Source: an uncultured candidate division Zixibacteria bacterium | GTDB taxonomy: Bacteria; Zixibacteria; MSB-5A5; UBA10806; 4484-95 | Length of the DNA: 64,000 nucleotides | Assembly: GCA_963668625.2 (NCBI GenBank) | Contig: CAXXKA010000008.1 | Span: forward strand, 448,001-512,000 | Direction: 5' to 3' | Part shown: positions 18,350 to 36,093 of the stretch, piece after piece | Numbering within the stretch: the stretch's first letter is position 1 | Layout of the letters: each line of letters begins with the position of its first letter | Position numbers and translations under genes: made by a program | The notes under the pieces: generated by a model | What the model saw: only the letters and a program-made list of their open reading frames with translations | Told to the model about the DNA's origin: nothing | Database searches by the model: none

Positions 18350-21300
18350 ATGAGCAAAGCTAATTGGTTGTGCTTTCTACTGGTGTTAGTATTCGCGCCG
18401 GTAGTCTGGTCAGGACAAGTCAGTCCCTTCCTGGATGATTATCTTCAGGAATTTTCGACCAGTGCTGATGTCGAAGTGCTTGTAATGTTCGAACAGCAGG
18501 CCGACATCCAGAGCTTGAACCAGCAATTGAAAGATGAGAAAGCGACCCTGGCTGAACGTAACCGTCGTGTTATCGAGGCTCTACAGGAAGTCGCCACAAA
18601 CACACAGCCGTCAATGGTTGCCTATTTCGATCAGCTTCAATCCCAGGGTTATGTAAGCGAATACAAAACCATGTGGATTGCCAATATGGCTATCGTTAAA
18701 ACAACCAAGGCCGGTGTTTATGCAATGGCAGATAACAATGCTATCGGTGATATCGCCCTTAGCTATAAAGTCAGAGGTATTCAGCCGACTAAAATTTCGG
18801 AAGATGATGAATCTCTGATTGCCTCGGTTGAGGCTGGCCTTGAGGCTATCAATGCTCCGGCCGCCTGGGCTGCCGGTTTCACCGGCGCCGGCCGTGTAGT
18901 AGCGAATATGGATACCGGCGTTGACGGTAACCATCCGGCATTAGCCGATCGTTTCCGTGGTGATGTCGATGGCGATGATGATGTCGATGAGAGCTTCTTC
19001 GATCCTTATACAACCGGATGGACTTTTCCTCAGGATTCAGACTCGCATGGTACCCATACCATGGGTACGATTTGTGGCCGTTCCGAAGCCGGTGACACTG
19101 TTGGTGTCGCTATTGAGGCTCAGTGGATTGCCGCGGCTGCTATTGATCGTGGTGGCGGTATCGAGGGTACAGTCGCTGATGCTATCGAGTCGTTCCAGTG
19201 GTTTGTCGATCCCGATGACAATTCCGAAACCCAAGACAACCCGGATGCCGTCGGTAACTCCTGGGGTATCTCCCCGATTTATCATGGCGTTCCTCCATGT
19301 GATGATACTTTCTGGTCGGTAATCGATAATCTGGAAGCCGCCGGTACCGCCGTTATTTTCTCGGCCGGTAACGAGGGTCCGGATGTCGGTTCCTTGAGGA
19401 CTCCGTCCGATCGTGCTACAACCCGCTATAATGTATTTTCAGTAGGCGCTGTTGACGGCGGCAATGCGAATTACCCGGTTGCCAGTTTTTCATCCCGCGG
19501 CCCGTCTTATTGCACCCCGGATGGCGAACCGACTTTCAAGCCTGAAGTTGTCGCCCCCGGTGTTGATGTCAGAAGTTCGGTTCCCGGTGGTGGTTACTCC
19601 ACTATGAGCGGCACCTCGATGGCCTCGCCGCACGTTACCGGTTGTGTCGGTGTAATCCGCGGCGTCAATCCCGATCTCGATGTTGATTCTATCAAAGAGA
19701 TCCTGATGGCCACGGCTCATGACCTCGGCGCTGAAGGTCCTGATAACGATTACGGTGTTGGTATTATCGACATCTATGAAGCCTGCCTGATCGCTATGGA
19801 TGGCTACGGCTATATAGAAGGTTATGTATATGACGATGACACCGAAGATGGTATTGCTAATGCTTTAGTTTCTATTGATGGTACCACCAGAACTGCCATT
19901 GCCGACGACAATGGTTTCTACAGCATCGGTCTTCCCGCTGACACATCGTATTCGATGACTGCCAGTTATTTCGGTTATGTTTCCAGCAATGTCAGTGATG
20001 TCGCTGTTGTTGCCGATGAGACCACGGATCAGGATTTCTATCTTGAGCCCGCCGATGCCGGTTATCTTCATGGTTACGTAACCGACCTGGATGAGAATCC
20101 GATTGAGAGCGCGACTTTAACTATAGTCGATACTCCAATTGGTTCTGCAACCACCGATGAAAACGGCTACTATTTATTTGATGAAATTCCCGGTGGCGCC
20201 ACTTACACTGTTGAAGTTGCTGCTGTTGGATATGGTTTTGCATCTGGTATGGTTGATGTTCCGGTTGGCGATACCGCTACTTTAAGCTTCTCACTCCAGG
20301 GGATGGAGTCATTCGAAGGTTCGAATGGCGGTTATGACGGTGAAGGTACCTGGGAGTGGGGTGTGCCTAGTTCAGGTCCCGGCGAAGCCTATGATGGTAA
20401 TAATGTATGGGCTACTATTCTCGACGGTAACTATGTTGATGATCTCGATGACGGCCTGATCACACCGCAGTATGAGATTACCGACGCGAACGCCATGCTC
20501 TCGTTCTACCACTGGTACGTAATCGAGGAAGATTATGACGGTGGACAACTTCAGGTTTCTATCGATGGTGGTTTAAATTGGGATTTACTTACCCCAGAGG
20601 GTGGCTATCCGGTAGCCGAGGTCGTTGGGCTCGATGATGGTCCGGGATTCTCCGGCGAACCAGCTACCTGGGAATTAGTTGTCGTGGATCTCTCGGCTTA
20701 TGAGGGTGAAACAATCTCCATTAAATTCCGTTTCGGTACCGATGGTTCGCAACAACGCGCCGGCTGGTATATTGACGGCGTAGTACTTAACGGTGGTATC
20801 ATGAGAGCACCGGAGGCATCTTTGTCTTGTCCTTCGATGAATATTGATGTCATGCAGGGCGACTCGCATGACGTGCAGATGACTCTTTCCAACAACGGTG
20901 ATGCTCAGCTTAATTATAATGTTGTTGTGCTTACCGATCTGGCATTGAGTGCTACCGATGATACCGAAAGAAGCTACACCGGCCAGGTATTCGAGTCCAA
21001 AGAAGGCCATATCATGGACGAGAACGGTTCGATCAAGGTAACGGGCGAATCACCGTTCAACTACGATGATGTAATTACCAGTATTGGTGGCCCGGATGCA
21101 TTCGGCTACACTTACATAGACTCCGATGAGGAGAATGGCCCGCATTACGAGTGGAAAGATATCACCGGAATCGGTTCGGCGATCACTTTCAACGGTGGAA
21201 CAAATCCGAACGATGACGGTTACTCCAATTCTATCTCGATGGGCATGAATTTCGAGTTTTACGGTGTTCCTGTCACCGATATTCAGGTCAGCACCAACGG

Positions 21301-22195
21301 TTGGGTTTCTTTTAATAATTACTCGACCTCTTATCTCACCAACACCGGCATCCCCGGTACCAGTGATCCCAACAACATTATTGCCGTATTGTGGGATGAT
21401 CTCAATGGTTATGAAGGCACCTGCTACTACTACTACGATGAGACAGAGAATCAATTCATCGTCTCCTGGACCGATTGGGGTTTCTATATTTACGGTGGTG
21501 ATTCTCGTCGGTATGACATGCAGGTTATTCTTGATGGCGATGATAACTCGATTCTTTTACAATATGGTGATATCTCCGAGGGAGAATACGATAGTGATAT
21601 TTCCGTCGGTGTAGAAAACGCTGATGGTGATGTCGGGCTTGAGTACGCCTATGACAACTTTACCGGCTCAGGCGGTCTGGCTATCAAGTTCAGCTATCCT
21701 CTGTTCTGGCTGACCGTGGACCCGACTGTCGGCTATGTCGCGCCGGAAGGTTCGCAGGTATTCGATGTCAACTTCAATTCGGCTGAACTCGAACAGGGTA
21801 CCTATTACGGTGAGATTCGTATTAACACCAACGATCCCAACAACGGCATGTTCAGCGTACCATGTACTTTGAACGTAGGCCCGGTCGGTATCGATGATTA
21901 TTCATCGGCTGTTCCGAATGCGTTCACGCTGAATCAGAACTATCCCAACCCGTTCAACCCGACTACCGAGATCTCGTTCGGCTTGCCGACCGCCGGTCAC
22001 GTTAGTCTTGAGGTTTATGATGTCATGGGTCGCAAAGTCAGTATCGTCGTTGACGAGGAGATGGCTGCCGGTACCCATAGCATAATCTGGGATGGTAATA
22101 ACTTATCAGGTGAGAAGGTTACCTCGGGCGTTTATTTCTACAAACTCTCGCAGGGTGATAACACTACCACCAAAAAGATGATAATGTTGAAATAG
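18350..22195 (+). CDS. Secreted S8 subtilase (bacillopeptidase F-like) with carboxypeptidase-regulatory-like repeats, beta-sandwich domains and T9SS/FlgD-like C-terminal tail
   Basis: Signal peptide; DTG, HGTHTMG, GTSMASPHV triad; NYPNPFN...GVYFY tail. Confidence 0.9.
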   Translation: MSKANWLCFLLVLVFAPVVWSGQVSPFLDDYLQEFSTSADVEVLVMFEQQADIQSLNQQLKDEKATLAERNRRVIEALQEVATNTQPSMVAYFDQLQSQGYVSEYKTMWIANMAIVKTTKAGVYAMADNNAIGDIALSYKVRGIQPTKISEDDESLIASVEAGLEAINAPAAWAAGFTGAGRVVANMDTGVDGNHPALADRFRGDVDGDDDVDESFFDPYTTGWTFPQDSDSHGTHTMGTICGRSEAGDTVGVAIEAQWIAAAAIDRGGGIEGTVADAIESFQWFVDPDDNSETQDNPDAVGNSWGISPIYHGVPPCDDTFWSVIDNLEAAGTAVIFSAGNEGPDVGSLRTPSDRATTRYNVFSVGAVDGGNANYPVASFSSRGPSYCTPDGEPTFKPEVVAPGVDVRSSVPGGGYSTMSGTSMASPHVTGCVGVIRGVNPDLDVDSIKEILMATAHDLGAEGPDNDYGVGIIDIYEACLIAMDGYGYIEGYVYDDDTEDGIANALVSIDGTTRTAIADDNGFYSIGLPADTSYSMTASYFGYVSSNVSDVAVVADETTDQDFYLEPADAGYLHGYVTDLDENPIESATLTIVDTPIGSATTDENGYYLFDEIPGGATYTVEVAAVGYGFASGMVDVPVGDTATLSFSLQGMESFEGSNGGYDGEGTWEWGVPSSGPGEAYDGNNVWATILDGNYVDDLDDGLITPQYEITDANAMLSFYHWYVIEEDYDGGQLQVSIDGGLNWDLLTPEGGYPVAEVVGLDDGPGFSGEPATWELVVVDLSAYEGETISIKFRFGTDGSQQRAGWYIDGVVLNGGIMRAPEASLSCPSMNIDVMQGDSHDVQMTLSNNGDAQLNYNVVVLTDLALSATDDTERSYTGQVFESKEGHIMDENGSIKVTGESPFNYDDVITSIGGPDAFGYTYIDSDEENGPHYEWKDITGIGSAITFNGGTNPNDDGYSNSISMGMNFEFYGVPVTDIQVSTNGWVSFNNYSTSYLTNTGIPGTSDPNNIIAVLWDDLNGYEGTCYYYYDETENQFIVSWTDWGFYIYGGDSRRYDMQVILDGDDNSILLQYGDISEGEYDSDISVGVENADGDVGLEYAYDNFTGSGGLAIKFSYPLFWLTVDPTVGYVAPEGSQVFDVNFNSAELEQGTYYGEIRINTNDPNNGMFSVPCTLNVGPVGIDDYSSAVPNAFTLNQNYPNPFNPTTEISFGLPTAGHVSLEVYDVMGRKVSIVVDEEMAAGTHSIIWDGNNLSGEKVTSGVYFYKLSQGDNTTTKKMIMLK

Positions 22196-24806: not shown

Positions 24807-26198
24807 TTACAATTTCAAACTACCGATAAACTCATCTACCTCCGGGATACCGCCCTGCAAGACAAGGTAGCCATCATAGGGCTCGCGTGGGGTTATCTCA
24901 TCGGCGATAGGAGTGAGCATGATATTTTTCACCTCGTCGGGGTCGGTGGTTTGGCCGAGCGCCCAGCCGAGCTTGACATAAGCCACCTCTGGCAGCATGT
25001 TGGCGGCCGGTACCACACCCAGATGCATCAGGTCACGACCGGTGTCGTACACGTACATATCGACATAGCCCCAGAGAGTCTGCACGGTCATGTATACCGC
25101 GACTCCCTTATCGATAGCTTTTTTCAGAGGCTTATACAGCGGTTTGTTAACATGACCCAGTCCGGTTCCGGCGATCACTATCCCCTTATAGCCGTTGTCA
25201 ATCAGGGCCTCGATAATATCTGGCTGCATATTGGGGTAGTAATAAACGATCGCTATTTTGTCCTCGAATACCGGATTGATTTTAACGTTACGATCATCCC
25301 GACGCTTTTTGTAAGCGGTTTTAATATGGGAGATACCGCCCACCTCGACACGCGCGATCGGGACATCGCTTAAAGTACGAAACGTGGAACGATAGCTGGA
25401 ATGCATCTTACGAACCCGGGTACCCGAATGAAGCAGGTTGTATTGATCGGAGGTTGGCCCGAACATACACACCATCACCTGGGCAATATCGCCATGCGCG
25501 GCTGTCCAGGCAGCCGCCATCAGGTTACGAGCGGCATCCGAGGAGGGACGATCCGAGGAACGCTGCGATCCGACCATGACAATTGGAATCGGAGAGTCTT
25601 GCACCATGAAAGTTAATGCAGCTGCAGTGTGATGCATAGTATCGGTGCCATGACCGACGATTATACCATCAACGCCATTCTCAATCTCGCGGCCAATTGC
25701 CTCGGCTACGAGTTTCCACTGCTCCGGCCCCATATTTTCAGAAAATATACCGCAGATCTTCTCCGTGCGCATATTGCAGATATCGGCTAATTCAGGCACT
25801 GCGCCGTACAATTCGCCCGGTGTGAAAGCCGGAATAACCGCCCCGGTACGATAATCGAGGCGTGAGGCTATGGTTCCGCCGGTGCCAAGCAGGGTAACAT
25901 TGGGCTTTTTCTCATCGAACGGAAACTCTTTTTCGGGTATTTTGTACACGGCCTCTTTAAATGCCGTTTCCTTAGCCTCAAGGATGGAGGTGGTGGCCAA
26001 ACCGATATTGTAACCGTTTCGGAGTTTTAGTACGATATGTTTATCACCAGAGGTTTCCGAGCGTGGAAGAATCACGCCGACGAATTTGCCCTTATTGCTT
26101 TTAATTACAACATCCGACCATACCCGAACGCCCAGCTCCTTTAATTTGGCCAGGGCTTCGCCTTTATATCCTTTGTAAACAACGCTATCATCAGCCAC
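24807..26198 (-). CDS. gatD: Glu-tRNA(Gln) amidotransferase subunit GatD (archaeal-type)
   Basis: GatD N-domain (ILPRSE...IVLKLRNGYNIG) plus asparaginase core TGGTIASRLDYRTGAV, HGTDT, GSQRSSDRPSSD, KMHSSYRSTF. Confidence 0.9.
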   Translation of the reverse strand: MADDSVVYKGYKGEALAKLKELGVRVWSDVVIKSNKGKFVGVILPRSETSGDKHIVLKLRNGYNIGLATTSILEAKETAFKEAVYKIPEKEFPFDEKKPNVTLLGTGGTIASRLDYRTGAVIPAFTPGELYGAVPELADICNMRTEKICGIFSENMGPEQWKLVAEAIGREIENGVDGIIVGHGTDTMHHTAAALTFMVQDSPIPIVMVGSQRSSDRPSSDAARNLMAAAWTAAHGDIAQVMVCMFGPTSDQYNLLHSGTRVRKMHSSYRSTFRTLSDVPIARVEVGGISHIKTAYKKRRDDRNVKINPVFEDKIAIVYYYPNMQPDIIEALIDNGYKGIVIAGTGLGHVNKPLYKPLKKAIDKGVAVYMTVQTLWGYVDMYVYDTGRDLMHLGVVPAANMLPEVAYVKLGWALGQTTDPDEVKNIMLTPIADEITPREPYDGYLVLQGGIPEVDEFIGSLKL

Positions 26199-26300
26199 GG
26201 TATTTTCCTTTTCTCTTTATTGCTATTGCGAGGCCTCCTGATTGTGAGGCCGCGTCAATCTCCTTAAGTTGAAAGCTTCAATCGGCGGTTACGAAACGGC

Positions 26301-26444
26301 GGCTTGCTGAAAAAGCCTTTTTCACCCGTCGCTTGGCTGATGAAGTCCTTTGCTCATCCTTTCCCGGCGACATCCGCATGAAATCAGGTATCAGGAAATG
26401 ATTCATGACATCGCAACTATCCAATTTGGCTTTTTCAATAATCC
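26301..26444. mobile_element. 144-bp MITE with 17-bp imperfect TIRs and 4-bp target duplication
   Basis: Left GGCTTGCTGAAAAAGCC, right reverse complement GGATTATTGAAAAAGCC (14/17); CGGC on both sides; internal segment recurs at ~59537-59603. Confidence 0.6.
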
Positions 26445-26747
26445 CGGCGTTTCGCAACGAGATTGTTATTGCGCGCAGACCGTTAATCTACCGCGCGATT
26501 AAACGCGTGTAATGTAATGTTTGGAGGTGGGTTTGGCAAGTTGGAAATATCTGTTAATAACAGGTATAAACATATGTGATTTTCGTCGTGTATCATGACA
26601 TTCGTTACATCTTATATTACCCTGGAATGAGAAATATTAAATTTCGCCGTCAGTTAACTCAGACCGAGTTTCCTGATTTCCAGGCGCTGCCTGGGAACCT
26701 TCTTGAGTCATGTAGACTGCGCATTCTGCCGGCAAACAAGCCGCGTC

Positions 26748-26822
26748 TGGTTCTAACTGATCGGGAGACGGTGCAGCAGATATCGGAAAATCCTTATCTT
26801 CAATACTTTCTTGGATTTTCAT
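26748..26822 (+). mobile_element. IS5-family transposase fragment
   Basis: Peptide LTDRETVQQISENPYLQYFLGFS resembles the conserved DUF772/IS5 transposase N-terminal segment. Confidence 0.6.
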
Positions 26823-26923
26823 ATGCCGAGCGGTGTGAAAATACTATTCTCAGCAGATAAGGTTTGTATCGTTGCTATCATGATGATTGCTACCATCACC
26901 ATCATTATCGTTTTCATCTTCAT
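26819..26923 (-). pseudogene. Truncated 7th array gene (signal peptide only, 34 aa)
   Basis: MKMKTIMMVMVAIIMIATIQTLSAENSIFTPLGI*; first 25 aa identical to 28312-29325 and 30721-31731. Confidence 0.8.
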
Positions 26924-26979
26924 TATTCCTCCCTTGAGAGGCGGGTAGATCAGGCAGTGCCTGACCTACCCTTACTATG

Positions 26980-28254
26980 TTACTTCAACAGTGTCATCTG
27001 CTTTGTCTCGGTGAAGGTGCCAGTGTCGATGGTGTAGAAATATACCCCACTTGCGGCATCTCTGGTATCCCAGGTTATGTTGTGATTGCCTGCGGGTAAT
27101 TGTCCCGGTGATAATGCCTCAACCAGCTGGCCTGTTATGTTGTAGATACGAATGTTAACCTCAGTCTCCTCGGGCAGGGCGAAACTGATATTCGTTTGAG
27201 CGTTGAACGGGTTGGGGTAGTTCTGAGAGAGGCTGTACTCCTGCGGCAATGGTTGCTCTGGAGCATCTACAGTGTAGAACAGATTAGCGAGGATGGCGTT
27301 AAGCATCTCGGCGCGCGTGTTCTGGCCCTCGTCGGTGAAGTAGGCAAAGCCGAAACCGTTGTACCAGTCGAAGCGGCCAGTTTCGCCAGCTTCAACAATA
27401 ATACCTCTTTTGCCGGGATAATAGGGAATACCTTCAAAAGCTGTTCGAATTATATCATCTCTAGGACTGTAATCATCATGAGGCGCAGGTTCATTATATT
27501 CTACAATTAAGCCCGAAGTACATCGATTATAGGAAACCCCAGCAATAGCACGATTAAGCAAAACAGGCCAAGATGGAAATGTATTAAAAATATTAAAGTA
27601 ATCATCATTGTTAAAATCACCGAAATTGATTACTTTTCCTCCGTTTTCAGCATAGGGGTATATTAAATCGAAATGGTTTTGTAATTGCTGTTCGGTTAGT
27701 CTTTGTTCTCCATACTGCCCATCGCAATCAATTACTACATCATAGCAGTTAAGCTCAAGCATATCGGGAAGTGAATTTGCAGTAGTGAAATTATAACCTA
27801 TTCTTGAACCTACTGCAATTAAGCTGTCAGCATTGTGGGAATCTATCTCGTCGATTACGAGTATGGCATTAACATCCGCACATTTACCAAGCGGTGTGAT
27901 ATTTTCATCACGCGGTTCGTACCTGCCGATGGGGATATTTCTATCCTCGTAGAACCTGTTAGGATACGAGGCTCTTATTTGTACTTGTCCTGGCCGCCAG
28001 ATTGTTGAATTGAAGAAATACCTGCCTTGCTGAGTATAACCTATTTTCATTAAATTATTCTCCGGGCTCCAGCAAACTACTTTTATACTGTCAGGTTGGC
28101 CATTGTTATCGTATCGACCATTGTCATCTACATTGATGATTACCTGCTGTGGGTTTCTTGATGGTGAAATGTGGTTCTGGGCTGATAATGGTATCAGCAA
28201 TGCCAGCATGAACACAACCACCGCCATTATCATCAATATCGTTTTGTTATTCAT
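26980..28254 (-). CDS. Array gene G6: secreted protein, signal + module A + module B(type 3) + T9SS-like tail
   Basis: Signal peptide; shared modules with neighbours; NYPNPFN tail. Confidence 0.85.
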   Translation of the reverse strand: MNNKTILMIMAVVVFMLALLIPLSAQNHISPSRNPQQVIINVDDNGRYDNNGQPDSIKVVCWSPENNLMKIGYTQQGRYFFNSTIWRPGQVQIRASYPNRFYEDRNIPIGRYEPRDENITPLGKCADVNAILVIDEIDSHNADSLIAVGSRIGYNFTTANSLPDMLELNCYDVVIDCDGQYGEQRLTEQQLQNHFDLIYPYAENGGKVINFGDFNNDDYFNIFNTFPSWPVLLNRAIAGVSYNRCTSGLIVEYNEPAPHDDYSPRDDIIRTAFEGIPYYPGKRGIIVEAGETGRFDWYNGFGFAYFTDEGQNTRAEMLNAILANLFYTVDAPEQPLPQEYSLSQNYPNPFNAQTNISFALPEETEVNIRIYNITGQLVEALSPGQLPAGNHNITWDTRDAASGVYFYTIDTGTFTETKQMTLLK

Positions 28255-28311
28255 TATTCCTCCCTTGAGAGGGGGGGTAAGTCAGGCAGTGCCTGACCTA
28301 CCCTTACTATG

Positions 28312-29325
28312 TTACTTCAACAGTGTCATCTGCTTTGTCTCGGTGAAGGTGCCAGTGTCGATGGTGTAGAAATATACCCCACTTGCGGCATCTCTGGTAT
28401 CCCAGGTTACGTTATGATTGCCCGCGGGTAACAACCCCGGTGATAATGTCTCAACCAACTGGCCGGTGATGTTGTAAATGCGGATGCTGACCTCAGTCTC
28501 CTCTGGCAAAGCGAAACTGATATTTGTTTTAGCGTTGAATGGGTTGGGGTAGTTCTGGGAGAGTGAGTACTCCTGCGGCAATGGTTGCTCCGGCGCATCG
28601 ACAGTGTAGAACAGGTTTTTGAGGATGACGTTTAGCATCTCAGCGCGTGTGTTCTGCCCCTCATCGGTGAAGTAGGCAAAGCCGAAACCGTTGTACCAGT
28701 CGAAACGGCCAGTTTCGCCGACTTCAACTATAATCCCGCGTACACCTTGAATGAAAGGAGCTGGTTCAAATATTGCTGTATACCAGCCAGTAACTCTCGG
28801 CATGTAATCGTTGTGGGGAGCAGGTTCGTTGTACTCAACACTTATCCCAGCAGTTACATCATTGCAGCTTAATCCCACCATGGATGTATTGCACCCTAAG
28901 AATGGAATTGTAGTATAATCAAAAACGCCGATGTAATCATCATTTCTAAAATCACCGAAGTTAATGACTTTACCTCCAAGTTCAGCGTATGCATAAAGCA
29001 AATTAAAATGCTCTTGAAGTTGTTGTTCACTCATGAATGGTTCACCGTATTGCCTGGAGCCGTCAAAGTCTATTACAACATCGTAAATATCAAGCTCAAG
29101 CATATCAGGTAGAACATTTACGGTTGTTAAATTGTAATCTAACCTTGTTGCCACAGCAATTAAACTATCAGCGTTAGGAGAGTTGAGTTGGTCGATTACT
29201 AAGATTGAATCAACGTCAGCGCATTTGTTGAATGGCGTGAAACTACTATCCTCAGCAGATAAGGTTTGTATCGTTGCTATCATGATGATTGCTACCATCA
29301 CCATCATTATCGTTTTCATCTTCAT
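28312..29325 (-). CDS. Array gene G5: secreted protein, signal + module B(type 2) + T9SS-like tail
   Basis: As above. Confidence 0.85.
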   Translation of the reverse strand: MKMKTIMMVMVAIIMIATIQTLSAEDSSFTPFNKCADVDSILVIDQLNSPNADSLIAVATRLDYNLTTVNVLPDMLELDIYDVVIDFDGSRQYGEPFMSEQQLQEHFNLLYAYAELGGKVINFGDFRNDDYIGVFDYTTIPFLGCNTSMVGLSCNDVTAGISVEYNEPAPHNDYMPRVTGWYTAIFEPAPFIQGVRGIIVEVGETGRFDWYNGFGFAYFTDEGQNTRAEMLNVILKNLFYTVDAPEQPLPQEYSLSQNYPNPFNAKTNISFALPEETEVSIRIYNITGQLVETLSPGLLPAGNHNVTWDTRDAASGVYFYTIDTGTFTETKQMTLLK

Positions 29326-29383
29326 TATTCCTCCCTTGAGAGGCGGGTAGATCAGGCAGTACCTGACCTACTCTGTGACTATG

Positions 29384-30664
29384 TTACCTCAACAGTGTCA
29401 TCTGCTTTGTCTCGGTGAAAGCGCCGGTGTCGATAGTGTAGAAATACACACCACTGGCGGCATCGTTGGCATCCCAGGTTACGTTATGATTGCCTGCGGG
29501 TAACAACCCCGGTGATAGTGTCTCCACCAACTGGCCGGTTATGTTGTAGATGCGGATGCTGACCTCAGTCTCCTCTGGCAAAGCGAAACTGATATTTGTT
29601 TTAGCGTTGAATGGGTTGGGGTAGTTCTGGGAGAGTGAGTACTCCTGCGGCAATGGTTGCTCCGGAGCATCGACAGTATAGAACAGGTTAGCGAGGATGG
29701 CGTTTAGCATCTCGGCGCGGGTGTTCTGGCCCTCATCGGTGAAATAGGCAAAGCCGAAACCGGGATACCAATCAAATCGGCCTGTCTCGCCCGCCTCAAT
29801 TGCCATTGCTCGTGTTCCCTGCCTGAATGGCATAGGTTCGAAAATTGTAGTACTCCAGCCAGAGTAAGGCATATAATCATCATGCGGTGCAGGCTCGTTG
29901 TATGCTATACTCATTCCACCGGTAATAGGATTATTAATAAATCCATTCATAACTGAATTAATGCCAAGGAAGAAAGTATCCCAACAGCTAAATATATCCC
30001 AGTAATCATCATTTCTAAAGTCCCCGAAATTGATTATCTTTCCACCATTTTCAGCGTATTGGTATAGTAAATCGAAATGCTCTTGAAGCACTTCGTCACT
30101 CATGAAAGATTCGCCATATAGCCTGGAACCATCGAAATCAATAACAACATCGTAGTTCTCAAGCTCTAACGAGGAAGGAAGTTCATGTGTTTTACAAATC
30201 TCATATCCCTGACGTATGCCTATCTTAATCAAACTATCGGCGTTGTGTGAATAAGTTTGATCAATGACAAGTATTGTTCGTACATCAGCGCATTTGCTGA
30301 GAGGTGTTATATTTTCATCGCGTGGTTCGTATCTGCCAATGGGGATATTTTTATCATCGTAGAATCTGTTAGGATATGAGGCTCTTACCTGTACTTGCCC
30401 CGGCCGCCAGATTGTTGAATTGAAGAAATACCTACCTTGCTGAGTATAACCTATTTTCATTAAGTTGTTCTCAGGACTCCAGCACACTACTTTTACGCTG
30501 TCAGGTTGGCTATTGTTATCGTATCGGCCGTTGTCATCTACGTTTATGATTACCTGCTGTGGGTTTCTTGATGGTGAAATGTGGTTCTGGGCTGATAATG
30601 GTATCAGCAATGCCAGCATGAACACAACCACCGCCATTATCATCAATATCGTTTTGTTATTCAT
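29384..30664 (-). CDS. Array gene G4: secreted protein, signal + module A + module B(type 1) + T9SS-like tail
   Basis: Start reassigned to ATG 30664 (MNNK) after GGGAGG RBS; module B nearly identical to that of G1. Confidence 0.85.
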   Translation of the reverse strand: MNNKTILMIMAVVVFMLALLIPLSAQNHISPSRNPQQVIINVDDNGRYDNNSQPDSVKVVCWSPENNLMKIGYTQQGRYFFNSTIWRPGQVQVRASYPNRFYDDKNIPIGRYEPRDENITPLSKCADVRTILVIDQTYSHNADSLIKIGIRQGYEICKTHELPSSLELENYDVVIDFDGSRLYGESFMSDEVLQEHFDLLYQYAENGGKIINFGDFRNDDYWDIFSCWDTFFLGINSVMNGFINNPITGGMSIAYNEPAPHDDYMPYSGWSTTIFEPMPFRQGTRAMAIEAGETGRFDWYPGFGFAYFTDEGQNTRAEMLNAILANLFYTVDAPEQPLPQEYSLSQNYPNPFNAKTNISFALPEETEVSIRIYNITGQLVETLSPGLLPAGNHNVTWDANDAASGVYFYTIDTGAFTETKQMTLLR

Positions 30665-30720
30665 TATTCCTCCCACGAGAGGGGGGTAAGTCAGGCAGTG
30701 CCTGACCTACCCTTACTATG

Positions 30721-31731
30721 TTACTTCAACAGTGTCATCTGCTTTGTCTCGATGAAAGCTCCGGTATCGATAGTGTAGAAATACACCCCGCTGGCGGCAT
30801 CGTTGGCATCCCAGGTTACGTTGTGATTGCCTGCGGGCAGCAATCCCGGTGATAGTGTCTCAACCAACTGGCCGGTGATGTTGTAAATGCGGATGCTGAC
30901 CTCAGTCTCCTCTGGCAACGCGAAACTGATATTTGTTTTAGCGTTGAAAGGATTGGGGTAGTTCTGGGAGAGGCTATATTCCTGTGGCAGTTCTTGTTCG
31001 GGCGCATCGACAGTGTAGAACAGGTTAGCGAGGATGGCGTTGAGTAGCTCCTCTCTGGTATTCTGTCCTTCATCAGTGAAGTAGGCAAAGCCGAAACCGT
31101 TGTACCAGTCGAAACGGCCAGTTTCGCCGATTACAACTGTAACACCTCTTTTACCGGGATAATAAGGAAGCCCCTCAAAAGCTGTTCGGCCATTATCATC
31201 TCTGGGCCAGTAATCACAATGAGGGGCAGGTTCATTATAATCTACAATGAGGCCTGAAGTACATCGATTATAGGAAACCCCGGCCATAGCATGATTAAGC
31301 ATAACAGGATCTGATGTAAAAGTGTAGAAGACATCAAAATAATCGTCATTCTCAAAATCACCGAAATTGATTACTTTGCCTCCATTTTCAGCGTATTGGT
31401 ATAGTAAATCGAAATGCTCTTGAAGTACTTCGTCGCTCATGAAAGATTCGCCATATTGCCTGGAGCCGTCAAAGTCTATTACAACATCGTAAATATCAAG
31501 CTCAAGCATATCAGGTAGAACATTTACGGTTGTTAAATTGTAATCTAACCTTGTTGCCACAGCAATTAAACTATCAGCGTTAGGAGAGTTGAGTTGGTCG
31601 ATTACTAAGATTGAATCAACGTCAGCGCATTTGTTGAATGGGGTGAAACTACTATCCTCAGCAGATAAGGTTTGTATCGTTGCTATCATGATGATTGCTA
31701 CCATCACCATCATTATCGTTTTCATCTTCAT
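30721..31731 (-). CDS. Array gene G3: secreted protein, signal + mosaic module B + T9SS-like tail
   Basis: Segments match G5, G4 and G6 in turn. Confidence 0.85.
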   Translation of the reverse strand: MKMKTIMMVMVAIIMIATIQTLSAEDSSFTPFNKCADVDSILVIDQLNSPNADSLIAVATRLDYNLTTVNVLPDMLELDIYDVVIDFDGSRQYGESFMSDEVLQEHFDLLYQYAENGGKVINFGDFENDDYFDVFYTFTSDPVMLNHAMAGVSYNRCTSGLIVDYNEPAPHCDYWPRDDNGRTAFEGLPYYPGKRGVTVVIGETGRFDWYNGFGFAYFTDEGQNTREELLNAILANLFYTVDAPEQELPQEYSLSQNYPNPFNAKTNISFALPEETEVSIRIYNITGQLVETLSPGLLPAGNHNVTWDANDAASGVYFYTIDTGAFIETKQMTLLK

Positions 31732-31789
31732 TATTCCTCCCTTGAGAGGCGGGTAGATCAGGCAGTACCTGACCTACTCTGTGACTATG

Positions 31790-32803
31790 TTACCTCAACA
31801 GTGTCATCTGCTTTGTCTCGGTGAAAGCGCCGGTGTCGATAGTGTAGAAATACACACCACTGGCGGCATCGTTGGCATCCCAGGTTACGTTGTGATTGCC
31901 TGCGGGCAGCAATCCCGGTGATAGTGTCTCAACCAACTGGCCGGTGATGTTGTAAATGCGGATGCTGACCTCAGTCTCCTCTGGCAGGGCGAAACTGATA
32001 TTCGTTTGAGCATTGAACGGGTTGGGGTAGTTCTGGGATAGGTTGTACTCCCGCGGTAGTGATAGTTCTGGCGTATCGACAGTGTAGAACAGGTTTTTGA
32101 GGATGACGTTTAGCATCTCAGCGCGTGTGTTCTGCCCCTCATCGGTGAAGTAGGCAAAGCCGAAACCGTTGTACCAGTCGAAACGGCCAGTTTCGCCGAC
32201 TTCAACTATAATCCCGCGTACACCTTGAATGAAAGGAGCTGGTTCAAATATTGCTGTATACCAGCCAGTAACTCTTGGCATGTAATCGTTGTGGGGACCA
32301 GGTTCGTTGTACTCAACACTTATCCCAGCAGTTACATCATTGCAGCTTAATCCCACCATGGATGTATTGCATCCTAAGAATGGAATTGTAGTATAATCAA
32401 AAACGCCGATGTAATCATCATTTCTAAAATCACCGAAGTTAATGGCTTTACCTCCAAGTTCAGCGTATGCATAAAGCAAATTAAAATGCTCTTGAAGTTG
32501 TTGTTCACTCATGAATGGTTCACCATATAGCCTTGAGCCGTCAAAGTCTAATACCACATCGTAAGTATCAAGCTCAAGCATATTGGGAAGAGCATTTACA
32601 AAAGTTAAATTATAGCCTTGCCTTGTACCTATAGCAACTAAACTATCAGCGTTGTGGGAGTTGAGCTGATCGATAACCAGGATTGAATCAATATCGGCAC
32701 ATTTGTTGAATGGCGTGATACTACTATCCTCAGCAGATAAGGTTTGTATCGTTGCTATCATGATGATTGCCGCCAGCACCATCATTATCGTTTTGTTATT
32801 CAT
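31790..32803 (-). CDS. Array gene G2: secreted protein, signal + module B(type 2) + T9SS-like tail
   Basis: C-terminal part of module B near-identical to G5. Confidence 0.85.
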   Translation of the reverse strand: MNNKTIMMVLAAIIMIATIQTLSAEDSSITPFNKCADIDSILVIDQLNSHNADSLVAIGTRQGYNLTFVNALPNMLELDTYDVVLDFDGSRLYGEPFMSEQQLQEHFNLLYAYAELGGKAINFGDFRNDDYIGVFDYTTIPFLGCNTSMVGLSCNDVTAGISVEYNEPGPHNDYMPRVTGWYTAIFEPAPFIQGVRGIIVEVGETGRFDWYNGFGFAYFTDEGQNTRAEMLNVILKNLFYTVDTPELSLPREYNLSQNYPNPFNAQTNISFALPEETEVSIRIYNITGQLVETLSPGLLPAGNHNVTWDANDAASGVYFYTIDTGAFTETKQMTLLR

Positions 32804-32859
32804 TATTCCTCCCTTGAGAGGCGGGTAGATCAGGCAGTGCCTGACCTACCCTTACTATG

Positions 32860-35800
32860 TTACTTCAACAGTGTCATCTGCTTTGTCTCTGTGAAAGCTC
32901 CGGTGTCGATAGTGTAGAAATACACCCCGCTGGCGGCATCGTTGGCATCCCAGGTTATGTTGTGGTTGCCCGCGGGTAACTGCCCCGGTGATATCGTCTG
33001 AACTAACTGGCCTTTTATGTTGTAGATACGAATGTTAACCTCAGTCTCCTCTGGCAGGGCGAAACTGATATTCGTTTGAGCGTTGAACGGGTTGGGGTAA
33101 TTCTGGGATAGTGAGTACTCCTGTGGCAGTGGTTGCTCGGGCGCATCGACAGTGTAGAACAGGTTTTTGAGTATGGCGTTTAGCATATCGGCGCGTGTGT
33201 TTTGGCCCTCATCGGTGAAGTAGGCAAAACCGAAACCGGGATACCAATCAAATCGCCCGGTCTCACCCGCCTCGATTGCCATTGCTCGTGTTCCCTGCCT
33301 GAATGGCATAGGTTCGAAAATTGTAGTACTCCAGCCAGAGTAAGGCATATAATCATCATGCGGTGCAGGCTCGTTGTATGCTATACTCATTCCACCGGTA
33401 ATAGGATTATTAATAAATCCATTCATAACTGAATTAATGCCAAGGAAGAAAGTATCCCAACAGCTAAATATATCCCAGTAATCATCATTTCTAAAGTCCC
33501 CGAAATTGATTATCTTTCCACCATTTTCAGCATATGGGTATAGTAAATCATAATGCTCTTGAAGCACTTCGTCACTCATGAAAGATTCGCCATATAGCCT
33601 GGAACCATCGAAATCAATAACAACATCGTAGTTCTCAAGCTCTAACGAGGAAGGAAGTTCATGTGTTTTACAAATCTCATATCCCTGACGTATGCCTATC
33701 TTAATCAAACTATCGGCGTTGTGTGAATAAGTTTGATCAATGACAAGTATTGTTCGTACATCCGCGCATTTGCTGAGAGGTGTGATATTTTCATCACGCG
33801 GTTCGTACCTGCCGATGGGGATATTTCTATCATCGTAGAACCTGTTAGGATACGAGGCTCTTACTTGTACTTGCCCCGGCCGCCAGATTGTTGAATTGAA
33901 GAAATACCTACCTTGCTGAGTATAACCTATTTTCATTAAATTATTCTCCGGGCTCCAGCAAACTACTTTTATACTGTCAGGTTGGCCATTGTTATCGTAT
34001 CGACCATTGTCATCTACATTGATGATTACCTGCTGTGGGTTTCTTGATGGTGAAATGTGGCTAGGACATTCTGATTGTAAGTATCTGTAACTAGTATTAC
34101 TACGCATTGGTGCTAAGGGGTTGCCAAAGTAATTTAATACTCTAAATTCCTGTGTATAAGGGCATGAAGATCCCCCCATAGCGAGGTAATGGCCAAAAGC
34201 AATTGATCTCTCTTCAATCGGTAAATCACTCATCTCTACAACAAAGAGAAACCTATTCAAGCATTTTAAATAAAACGGGTACGATGGTTTGTACAATGCT
34301 CCGGCAGCACCGATGCAGCTATGAGATGAACCGCTATTCATCAAAAACTCCACCATAGATGTATCACTGTAGTGGTCTACATCCCACCAGCTATAATCAT
34401 CGCAATCAACAGATGCAGAAAAGTCTGGTAAAATGTATATATTACCGCCATACTGATAATTACATCTTTTACTATAAAAGAAACTAAAATTAGATAAGTA
34501 CGGCCCATAGTAACCAGATTGCCTGGTAGTAAACATTGCCGGGTTGCAAGGTGCCATAACCATATTGTAATAGTTATCCCCCCATGGCGCCATTAGTTGC
34601 TCGGGTGTATATACTAAAGGAAGTTCAGCATCGCCATCAGGCTGGCCCTCAAATCCCTCAGGGAAATGAGAAATATTGTATCCAGAGATCGGCTCTGTCG
34701 CATAAAGGTATGATCCCCAATCAACGAATTCGTTAACTGAATAGGTGGCAATATCTCTTACATGCAGATACGGATTATCAAATGGAAGACTTTCCGGTAC
34801 CGGTTGGTTCTCAGAACGAACCATAGCCTCGGCATAGTTTGCAAGTTCGCTTGCATTGTTGCAGGGAATCCTACCGAGCCAGACTTGCGGAATAGTAGGG
34901 TAGATACCATCAATATTACGAGCCTCTAAGTAAGCTCCGTTACCGTTGCCATCATATAACGATAGCTCGCCAACGAGTAATGTGTAAATTATGTCGCTTC
35001 TGTTTAAATCGTCAGGTCTGCCATCCGGGTGCGCCTCGGGAAACGCCGTGTAGAAAATTGGGATGTCGGTGTTGGGGTCATCGCTTTGGGGGGCGAAACT
35101 GCCTATGAGCATCACGTAATTGGTGCCGTACTGCTGTTTGTGATACTTAATACAGTTGCGGATCTTATCCTTGGTGTTGATACCCGTATAATCATGCTCA
35201 ATCCGTTCGCGCGAAAGAGTCAACGGCGGATAACCCATCATGAGCAGGTGATGGGCGATCTTGTAGGTCGGCTCGGTGTCGTAGAAATCGTTGGCGGTGA
35301 TAAGCAGTATGGCGGGGTTGGTAAACTCCATCACCGAATTAACAGTGTCGACATCCCGGAACACGGTCTCGTTGTATTGAAGGATAGCGGTGCCGGAGGG
35401 CTGCCTTGCGGGCACCTGCCGCGGGTTTAAGGTGACCATAGCTTTCTGCACCGCGATATTCAACGCCGAGTCGGCAACGAACATGGCGCTGGGGCAAATC
35501 GGGTCGCGGCTAATCGAGGTGTAGTTAAACGAGAAACTGACACTCTCGACATGGCGTATCTGGTTGGTGGCGGGGTAGTAAACATAGGAGTATATCATCA
35601 CCCGGGCAAACGTGGCCCCGTTGAGATAGTCCTCCCCGATGAACTCTACCGGGTCGGCGGGATACTGCGCCATCGAGTACTCCGCGCCGGGCGGTACGAA
35701 CTCGGGCGGCTGCGGCCACGGGTAGAGTTCAAAGTTAACCAGGCTGTCGGCGATATCGTGATCGGGCGGCTGCACCGGCAGCGGCAGGTAATCCAGATCG

Positions 35801-36093
35801 ATCGGATCGCCAAGCTGCACGGTATAGCTCACGCCATTAGCGATGAGATTTTGCGGCGAGATCTCCATCTCGTAGATCACCGGGATCTCGGGCGCGCCTA
35901 CCTGGCCGGAGTTGGTGAGCGCTAATTCCTCACCGCTAAGTTTAATGTACTGATTGCTATTATAAGTAACTTCGGTTCGATTGAGTTCACCAAAACGAGA
36001 GTGAACATCAATACTGTAATTTGCCAGTGCGAGCTGTGTGGTGAGACCCAAGATGAAAAAGCATATGATCCAAAACATCCGTGTGCGAGTCAT
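32860..36093 (-). CDS. Array head gene G1: gingipain/peptidase C25-like protein (propeptide + C25-like domain) fused to module A + module B(type 1) + T9SS-like tail
   Basis: GAPEIP propeptide motif, ILLIT, IRNCIK...YVMLIG, SD..Y, WLGRIP, N.FGNP; RBS GGAGGAG. Confidence 0.75.
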   Translation of the reverse strand: MTRTRMFWIICFFILGLTTQLALANYSIDVHSRFGELNRTEVTYNSNQYIKLSGEELALTNSGQVGAPEIPVIYEMEISPQNLIANGVSYTVQLGDPIDLDYLPLPVQPPDHDIADSLVNFELYPWPQPPEFVPPGAEYSMAQYPADPVEFIGEDYLNGATFARVMIYSYVYYPATNQIRHVESVSFSFNYTSISRDPICPSAMFVADSALNIAVQKAMVTLNPRQVPARQPSGTAILQYNETVFRDVDTVNSVMEFTNPAILLITANDFYDTEPTYKIAHHLLMMGYPPLTLSRERIEHDYTGINTKDKIRNCIKYHKQQYGTNYVMLIGSFAPQSDDPNTDIPIFYTAFPEAHPDGRPDDLNRSDIIYTLLVGELSLYDGNGNGAYLEARNIDGIYPTIPQVWLGRIPCNNASELANYAEAMVRSENQPVPESLPFDNPYLHVRDIATYSVNEFVDWGSYLYATEPISGYNISHFPEGFEGQPDGDAELPLVYTPEQLMAPWGDNYYNMVMAPCNPAMFTTRQSGYYGPYLSNFSFFYSKRCNYQYGGNIYILPDFSASVDCDDYSWWDVDHYSDTSMVEFLMNSGSSHSCIGAAGALYKPSYPFYLKCLNRFLFVVEMSDLPIEERSIAFGHYLAMGGSSCPYTQEFRVLNYFGNPLAPMRSNTSYRYLQSECPSHISPSRNPQQVIINVDDNGRYDNNGQPDSIKVVCWSPENNLMKIGYTQQGRYFFNSTIWRPGQVQVRASYPNRFYDDRNIPIGRYEPRDENITPLSKCADVRTILVIDQTYSHNADSLIKIGIRQGYEICKTHELPSSLELENYDVVIDFDGSRLYGESFMSDEVLQEHYDLLYPYAENGGKIINFGDFRNDDYWDIFSCWDTFFLGINSVMNGFINNPITGGMSIAYNEPAPHDDYMPYSGWSTTIFEPMPFRQGTRAMAIEAGETGRFDWYPGFGFAYFTDEGQNTRADMLNAILKNLFYTVDAPEQPLPQEYSLSQNYPNPFNAQTNISFALPEETEVNIRIYNIKGQLVQTISPGQLPAGNHNITWDANDAASGVYFYTIDTGAFTETKQMTLLK

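Follow-up and report, generated by a model that had tools for sequence, protein, structure and literature searches.

The minus strand of a 64,000-nucleotide (nt) stretch of DNA from an uncultured candidate division Zixibacteria bacterium (the window; positions 448,001 to 512,000 of contig CAXXKA010000008.1, assembly GCA_963668625.2) carries, between window positions 26819 and 36093, six complete tandem genes (G1 to G6) and a truncated seventh. The source genome is metagenome-derived, spans 4.30 Mb in 10 contigs and is 95.9% complete. The last 400 residues of G1 comprise two modules, designated here A and B, and a C-terminal sorting domain of the type IX secretion system (T9SS), and G2 to G6 read as free-standing copies of this C-terminal part of G1, each with its own putative signal peptide. 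Two architectures are present among these copies, with G4 and G6 encoding a putative signal peptide followed by A, B and the sorting-domain tail, and G2, G3 and G5 encoding a different signal peptide followed by B and the tail. The open reading frames (ORFs) of all six genes are intact, each with a ribosome-binding site (Shine-Dalgarno) and a leader, and the G+C content of the array (0.44-0.455) is similar to that of the neighbouring DNA. The analyses reported here outline these tandem T9SS cargo genes as a real mosaic, for which homologous recombination of the ordinary kind within the family accounts, a known kind of process.

Table 1. Features of the tandem array and its downstream border (window positions; aa, amino acids).
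Feature	Position	Strand	Description	Basis
G1	32860-36093	-	1077 aa; N-terminal region with C25-peptidase-like domain, module A, module B, T9SS C-terminal sorting domain	ORF list, Pfam
Module A of G1	33790-34059	-	90 aa	
Module A, further copies	G4 30314-30583; G6 27904-28173	-		
Module B of G1	33145-33789	-	215 aa; shuffled orphan domain	
Module B, other copies	G2 32075-32722; G3 31006-31650; G4 29669-30313; G5 28597-29244; G6 27265-27903	-		
G2	31790-32803	-	337 aa; putative signal peptide, B, sorting domain	
G3	30721-31731	-	336 aa; mosaic with segments in the order G5-, G4-, G6-, G5-, G2-like	
G4	29384-30676	-	430 aa from a GTG start (ATG at 30664); putative signal peptide, A, B, sorting domain	
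G5	28312-29325	-	337 aa; mosaic of G3, G2, G4 and G6 segments	
G6	26980-28254	-	424 aa; leader identical to that of G4, A nearly that of G1, B the most diverged of the six	
G7 fragment	26819-26923	-	Start of a seventh gene, 34 codons then stop; 5'-truncated copy	
438-nt tract	31454-31891	-	G2 3' end, spacer and G3 5' part; repeated at 29048-29485 (G4 3' end, spacer, G5 5' part) with 1 mismatch	
Intergenic spacers	32804-32859; 31732-31789; 30665-30720; 29326-29383; 28255-28311; 26924-26979	-	56-58 nt	
Transposase remnant (DUF772)	26576-26860	+	Cuts the array off; E = 9.8e-6, 25.9 bits (cut-off 23.1)	Pfam

All six genes are closed by a Por_Secre_tail domain (PF18962), with scores of 44-49 bits against a cut-off of 27 and the G1 match covering residues 999-1072, and the three genes scanned with TIGR04183 all matched this model as well (45.9-48.3 bits, cut-off 23). 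Direct reading of the N-termini revealed hydrophobic leaders ending in LSA. The genome encodes T9SS machinery, including a PorU-type sortase (681.8 bits, cut-off 420) and SprA (570.8 bits, cut-off 200), and has at least 150 matches to the sorting domain, the number scored among 226 candidates. The GldM model (TIGR03517) returned no match in the genome, a result that is uninformative because the model matched no control genome either. Besides the sorting domains, the sole Pfam match across G1 to G6 is Peptidase_C25 (PF01364) in residues 263-467 of G1 (44.2 bits, cut-off 23), which covers only positions 2-185 of the 374 in the profile. Judged from their sequences, the products of the array are probably exported and displayed together.

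A preliminary description of the region had proposed that the copies are sub-genic mosaics, and its six statements on which segment of which gene resembles which other copy all hold, both in the protein alignment and in the nucleotide comparison. From its start codon to nt 278, in the codons for SRQYGE, G3 is the same as G5 apart from 1 mismatch in 275 aligned nt; after YGE it matches G4 for 73 nt (2 mismatches) and next resembles G6 over 240 nt at 82.9% identity. G5 changes to the G2 type at the same 3-nt interval as G3 and keeps to it for 445 nt (5 mismatches), beyond which it is G4-like for 196 nt (6 mismatches) and then G6-like for 98 nt without a mismatch. Module A of G6 is that of G1 (5 mismatches in 277 nt), whereas its module B differs, being 58-71% identical to any other copy; G4 carries the module B of G1, with 1 mismatch in 183 nt of the first sub-segment (B1) and none in 238 nt of the third (B3), but its A is more diverged (21 mismatches in 277 nt). 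The borders given for the mosaic region, 26980 and 34060, proved exact, the former being the G6 stop and the latter the onset of G1/G6 identity. Patchwork extends to the remaining genes: the copy nearest to G2 is G5 over most of its length, while the 3' end of G2 shows full identity with G3 over 95 nt and with G4 over the next 102 nt, and the copy nearest to G4 is G1 over 822 nt (96.4%), followed by G5 and then by G2.

Tracts of 90-450 nt with 0-4 mismatches adjoin segments of 52-63% identity. The longest near-identical tracts measure 450 nt (4 mismatches), 438 nt (1), 257 nt (0), 232 nt (1) and 183 nt (1). The tract list was obtained by exact-word chaining and contains 15 entries of at least 90 nt, two of them nested in a longer one; a BLAST self-comparison with an identity filter missed such tracts, as its alignments extended into diverged DNA, and the same applied genome-wide. 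Within module B, old and strongly diverged types can be distinguished, four in sub-segment B1, three in B2 and three in B3, and these are combined in five ways among the six genes. Between types, 37-48% of the nucleotides differ, with saturation at synonymous sites. Within a type, identity reaches 98-100%, and the exchanges are therefore recent. Identity per segment is bimodal: in B3, G1 and G4 differ at 0 of 238 positions and G2 and G5 at 4 of 241, against 52-61% identity between different types. Internal patches with other sequence on both sides were observed for the G4 type in G3 (73 nt), the G1 type in G6 (84 nt) and the G3 type in G2 (95 nt). Six of the 15 tracts involve an intergenic spacer, and four of these cross it into the adjoining gene, among them the 438-nt tract, which spans G2 nt 913 to G3 nt 278 and recurs from G4 nt 1192 to G5 nt 278. 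At the downstream border, the G7 fragment and its spacer share 110 identical nt with the starts of G3 and G5, and similarity can be traced to approximately position 26832.

The pairwise homoplasy index (PHI), for which the preliminary description had called, was computed on 995 ungapped columns with 312 informative sites and yielded 0.138, compared to a permutation mean of 0.282 (z = -32.6; none of 2000 permutations as low). In a run-length test that uses polymorphic sites only, and from which the effect of invariant blocks is thereby removed, the longest run of concordant polymorphic sites was reached in 0 of 5000 permutations for nine of the 15 gene pairs, and in at most 12 of 5000 for 13 of them. 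Congruence among segment trees, which would speak against recombination, was not found: maximum-likelihood trees for six segments clash at 100% bootstrap, with (G3,G5) as a clade in B1, (G2,G5) and (G3,G6) in B3, and (G2,G4) and (G5,G6) in the last 98 nt at the 3' end. In approximately unbiased (AU) tests of four segments, all five trees derived from other segments were rejected with p-AU < 0.03, mostly far smaller, and the log-likelihood gaps between segment trees were large (10-320 units).

Synonymous sites follow the same pattern, being identical inside shared tracts and saturated outside them. In B1, G1 and G4 present one synonymous difference in 39 synonymous sites, and the comparison of G1 with G2 is saturated. 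Because identity within the tracts extends to synonymous sites, constraint cannot explain them. The comparison of the variable region between G3 and G6, also suggested by the preliminary description, gave a synonymous divergence (dS) of 0.50-0.54 and a nonsynonymous divergence (dN) of 0.15-0.18, for a ratio (omega) of 0.29-0.33; no averaged signal of positive selection was seen in this region for this pair. Over the 15 gene pairs, the conserved block gave omega values of 0.03-0.19 and the sorting domain values of 0.06-0.14. The variable region is under relaxed purifying selection.

The preliminary description had further attributed the mosaic to repeated gene conversion or unequal crossover anchored at short conserved motifs (YGE, GGK, GETGRFDWY and ITP(L/F)). 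Recombination between copies stands, as does the GETGRFDWY anchor at the DNA level, where G2, G3 and G5 are identical over 55 nt within the GETGRFDWY-GFGFAYF block. The role assigned to YGE, GGK and ITP(L/F) is not supported. When a junction is taken as the stretch over which the recipient agrees fully with its two inferred parents, the shared length at the 15 junctions is 1-62 nt (median 5), and only 3 nt at YGE, 2 at GGK and 5 at ITPL, with 9 at GFGF. The anchor motifs are kept at the protein level yet differ at synonymous sites; module B contains no identical run of 12 nt or more common to all six copies, and the DNA at B-region junctions was not more conserved than at random positions (P = 0.06 with four junctions, 0.18 with five). 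The break at YGE shared by G3 and G5 is one end of the single 438-nt tract, and not two independent crossovers, because that tract runs from the upstream gene through the spacer. The best-conserved DNA of the repeat unit is the block formed by tail, spacer and leader, and the final part of the sorting domain contains the longest run (25 nt) that is invariant across the six copies. Since six of the tracts involve a spacer and four run into the neighbouring gene, the tail-spacer-leader block is a likelier pairing site than the micro-motifs.

Homology searches did not identify relatives of either module. For module B, a word-seeded search of 5.8 billion sequences returned just four clusters, all from this contig, and a HMMER profile search of 1.84 billion representative proteins returned the window's own protein only. 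None of the six copies of module B presented a Pfam match to the cleaved-adhesin or DUF2436 families up to E = 10, module A had no Pfam match up to the same value, and searches of both modules against Pfam, NCBIfam and Protein Data Bank (PDB) sequences were negative, with a best PDB profile match at E = 0.98 to malic enzyme. Comparison of the module B alignment with metagenome contigs and a scan with a degenerate GETGRFDWY...AYFT pattern did not reveal any other locus. Relatives were also sought with the C-terminal 262 aa of an array gene, including the sorting domain, and this query was set aside, as its matches corresponded to the sorting domain only and not to module B. An AlphaFold model of module B built from the six-sequence alignment was unusable (mean predicted local distance difference test score 39.6, predicted template modelling score 0.39), and the best score of an ESM Atlas feature search (0.88) fell under the 0.9 level for a lead. 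The G1 N-terminus did not locate the locus elsewhere in a collection of genome contigs. The locus is lineage-specific, because the N-terminal 678 aa of G1 match none of 23 genomes of the same family or order at E <= 1e-5 and show weak matches, at 25-30% identity, in four of 17 genomes of the same class.

Taken together, these data make it very likely that the array consists of tandem paralogous T9SS cargo genes that have been re-assorted by homologous recombination between misaligned copies. Short gene-conversion tracts are probably the main process, with unequal crossover setting the number of copies: short internal patches flanked by other sequence are a signature of gene conversion, and unequal crossover, which must also have acted, agrees with the truncated seventh copy and with the way in which long and short units alternate. 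Pairing would begin in the best-conserved DNA, formed by the terminal part of the sorting domain together with spacer and leader, and also in the 55-nt identical GETGRFDWY-GFGF block. From such a site the heteroduplex would extend into module B, and the tract would end where divergence halts branch migration or mismatch repair cuts. Tract ends set by divergence or by mismatch repair would account for the few bases shared at junctions.

The most immediate concern with a repeated locus in a genome assembled from a metagenome (1.6-1.8 million contigs per run) is that the mosaics are chimeras created by an assembler switching between similar copies, or that alleles of different strains were merged into a tandem array, and the array does contain exact repeats of up to 257 nt. 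Mis-traversal of the assembly graph cannot, however, create most of the observed junctions, because at 12 of the 15 the parents share fewer than 31 nt and a k-mer graph cannot switch copies there; re-phasing over the long identical tracts would reshuffle the mosaics but not remove them. Each copy has its own spacer and flanks, the 1.4-Mb contig contains no N, and a single variant letter was seen over 7.6 kb in two runs. Contigs assembled from two public runs (X1 and X2) agree with the stretch at 99% or more in 62 of 63 and 58 of 60 cases, respectively, although their cover is uneven, with little or none in places such as 33304-33557, and a third run (X3) yielded no contig for the stretch. One such contig (29017-29271) bridges the G5 junction at 29048-29050 with 31 letters on its short side, and another (27343-27922) bridges three G6 junctions. 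An X2 contig that joins 32032 to 33086, skipping 1053 nt, would favour an artefact, but its shorter side measures 20 letters and it was not used as evidence. Five loose-end consensus strings from the reads were also considered and found uninformative on the array, as three lie elsewhere in the genome (one near an insertion sequence (IS)-like repeat, two in one gene of contig C1) and two do not. On this evidence we regard an assembly artefact as very improbable.

Slightly less improbable, though still unlikely, is that some modules were replaced by diverged alleles from other strains or species, acquired through recombination with homologous foreign DNA and not through exchange within the array. 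The module types are saturated, with dS not computable or above 1, and types so distant are hard to build within a homogenising array; the restricted distribution of the G1 N-terminal region points in the same direction. Nevertheless, the partner of every near-identical tract lies inside the array, so that the recent events need no outside donor, no search found a homologue of module B elsewhere, and base composition does not set the array apart from its surroundings. The combinatorial variants and the position of the array downstream of one large gene could also recall programmed diversification, whether driven by a diversity-generating retroelement, by an invertase switch or shufflon, or by silent cassettes that supply an expression site, as happens in pilE/pilS and vlsE. 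A retroelement finds no counterpart in a genome of this completeness, in which no reverse transcriptase (PF00078) was detected with a search that gave matches in control genomes, and mismatches between copies (41-114 per pair) show no adenine bias. Inversion is not favoured by the single weak inverted repeat (27 nt, 74% complementary) found in 14.5 kb, with all copies in direct orientation, nor silent cassettes by six complete ORFs with ribosome-binding sites and leaders, where only the seventh copy is a fragment. A Pfam scan of eight flanking ORFs identified no intact recombinase, the sole transposase-related match being the 94-aa DUF772 remnant, and a programmed system is consequently highly improbable. 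The probability that duplication and divergence under uneven constraint produced the pattern without any recombination is close to nil: although the conserved motifs and the sorting domain experience strong purifying selection (omega 0.03-0.19), the tracts are identical at synonymous sites too, and the segment trees reject one another, so that the segment trees, the AU tests and the synonymous-site data refute this explanation. Recombination between tandem copies is the only reading that fits.

Several points nonetheless weigh against this interpretation or limit its reach. The contigs of the two runs are built from k-mers at a depth of 2-10 and cannot phase the copies across identical tracts of 232-450 nt; moreover, both runs derive from one sample, possibly the source sample, and contain 0.80-0.81 of the sampled words of the stretch, and hence provide no independent validation. 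The borders of the tree segments were picked after inspection of the data, which renders the AU p-values optimistic, and homoplasy at saturated sites inflates both the PHI result and the Hudson-Kaplan four-gamete bound on the number of recombination events (Rm = 33), the latter being set aside as evidence for this reason. With one genome, gene conversion, repeated unequal crossover and import from other strains are inseparable, and with the module found in no other genome or metagenome, donor and recipient are not told apart and the events are not polarised. Co-transcription and secretion of the array are inferences, as is the binding role proposed for module B.

Regarding expression, promoter-like sites are not in excess in the array (23 observed, 21.3 expected). 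Because all copies are under purifying selection and possess their own ribosome-binding site, and because of this lack of promoter excess, the sequence data suggest that the array is probably co-transcribed, plausibly as one operon. Four of the six intergenic spacers were folded, and these present an 11-13-bp hairpin without a U tract followed by a small 5-bp hairpin that engages the ribosome-binding GGGAGG through CCUCU; their minimum free energies range from -22 to -31 kcal/mol, with z-scores of -5.2, -1.4, -3.9 and -4.3. The sequence of the long hairpin occurs in six copies in the genome, every one inside the array. These spacer hairpins may influence translation or transcript stability.

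Patchy exchange between tandem paralogues seems to be general in this genome. Exact identity in patches was also identified in at least four further tandem arrays of secreted paralogues (C1:9972-15913, C4:70103-76317, C5:63422-72261 and C6:799741-814010, with contigs abbreviated C), each containing 8-12 exact tracts of at least 80 nt. One 388-aa ORF, which may encode a transposase, interrupts both the C4 and the C6 array.

Just downstream of the array, an interspersed element of approximately 80 nt is present at 26659-26749 and could be a miniature inverted-repeat transposable element or the end of an IS; it accounts for 80 of the 123 BLAST rows obtained against the genome, on eight of the ten contigs and mostly at 88-92% identity. 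A second interspersed repeat of approximately 145 nt (26284-26449) accounts for 36 of these rows, on nine of the ten contigs at 77-92% identity. Rfam returned no match in the interval 26150-27000. Further along (24807-26198, minus strand), a 463-aa protein combines GatD_N with asparaginase N- and C-terminal domains, the architecture of archaeal GatD. Proteins with 69-83% identity to it are found in many metagenome-assembled genomes (MAGs) of the Fibrobacteres-Chlorobi-Bacteroidetes (FCB) group, including Zixibacteria, Ignavibacteria, Calditrichota and Bacteroidales, with 408 of 448 pattern matches encoding relatives; the best matches are to MAGs labelled Zixiibacteriota (83, 79, 76 and 75%), and one match at 83% is labelled Ignavibacteria. 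In addition, a 1281-aa subtilase (Peptidase_S8) with CarboxypepD_reg, MAM-like and T9SS sorting domains is encoded at 18350-22195 on the plus strand, a large T9SS cargo protease located 5 kb from the array.

Recombination between tandem copies is a well-known bacterial route to surface-protein variation. The systems of Neisseria pilE/pilS, Borrelia vlsE and Treponema tprK combine one expression site with silent, incomplete cassettes and operate by segmental conversion. The array resembles them in generating combinatorial surface-protein variants from a local store of diverged copies, but differs in that all six of its copies are complete and look expressible. Bacterial multigene families are in turn known to undergo interparalogue conversion and concerted evolution (PMC8223754, PMC12046097, PMC1762029). 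In such families, short tracts are transferred non-reciprocally between similar copies of one genome and leave patches of identity, incongruent segment trees and hybrid genes. The array presents two of the features by which such conversion is recognised, namely near-identical tracts bounded on both sides by diverged sequence, synonymous sites included, and incongruence between adjacent segments. Its mechanism shows nothing visibly different from interparalogue conversion, of which it would be a new example in the T9SS cargo genes of a candidate phylum.

The closest known system is that of the gingipains and HagA of Porphyromonas gingivalis, which the array would resemble in its workings without being a member of it. 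According to the study describing them (PMC5266723), the C25 proteases encoded by kgp and rgpA, together with hagA, carry adhesin modules and a T9SS sorting domain, and the same modules recur in the protease-free HagA and PG0411 with their own leader and sorting domain. The study also reports identical repeats within and between genes, and a "combinatorial modularity" with groupings incongruent with the genome tree that was ascribed to recombination (PMC5266723). Both systems thus share a C25-like protein with C-terminal modules and a T9SS tail, the recurrence of these modules in protease-free form, identical repeat sequences and incongruence of the type left by recombination. In contrast, modules A and B match neither cleaved-adhesin nor DUF2436, the C25 match of G1 spans just the first half of the profile, and the array copies are separate small genes in tandem, where those of P. 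gingivalis are described as repeats inside polyproteins at dispersed loci. Exchange in the array also takes place below the domain level, among three sub-segments of one 215-aa module, and its host is an uncultured environmental bacterium, unlike the host-associated Bacteroidota species P. gingivalis. By analogy with the gingipain adhesin domains only, module B probably acts in binding, as a partner of the protease. A full-text literature search identified no paper linking Zixibacteria with type IX secretion, and for T9SS combined with gene conversion it retrieved the P. gingivalis study (PMC5266723) and one apparently unrelated paper.

What sets this case slightly apart is that the shuffled domain is an orphan and that a gingipain-like layout occurs in a distant, uncultured lineage of the FCB group. 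A layout combining a protease with free modules, with recombination between copies, is hence not confined to P. gingivalis, and the function of the 215-aa orphan module becomes a testable question. The junction analysis furthermore illustrates that motifs conserved in the protein at breakpoints need not be the DNA homology used by recombination, and loci of this type need long reads.

A further hypothesis, which we consider rather unlikely, is that selection maintains the array as a standing library from which conversion diversifies an orphan module for surface binding. Three or four ancient versions of each of the three sub-segments would be held apart by selection, and conversion seeded in the tail-spacer-leader block would keep recombining them, with all variants co-expressed from one operon that stands beside a C25-like protease bearing the same module. 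If this hypothesis were true, the set of specificities on display in a single cell line would keep changing, and the array would represent an environmental, non-pathogen counterpart of the gingipain/HagA system, built on a domain without detectable relatives.

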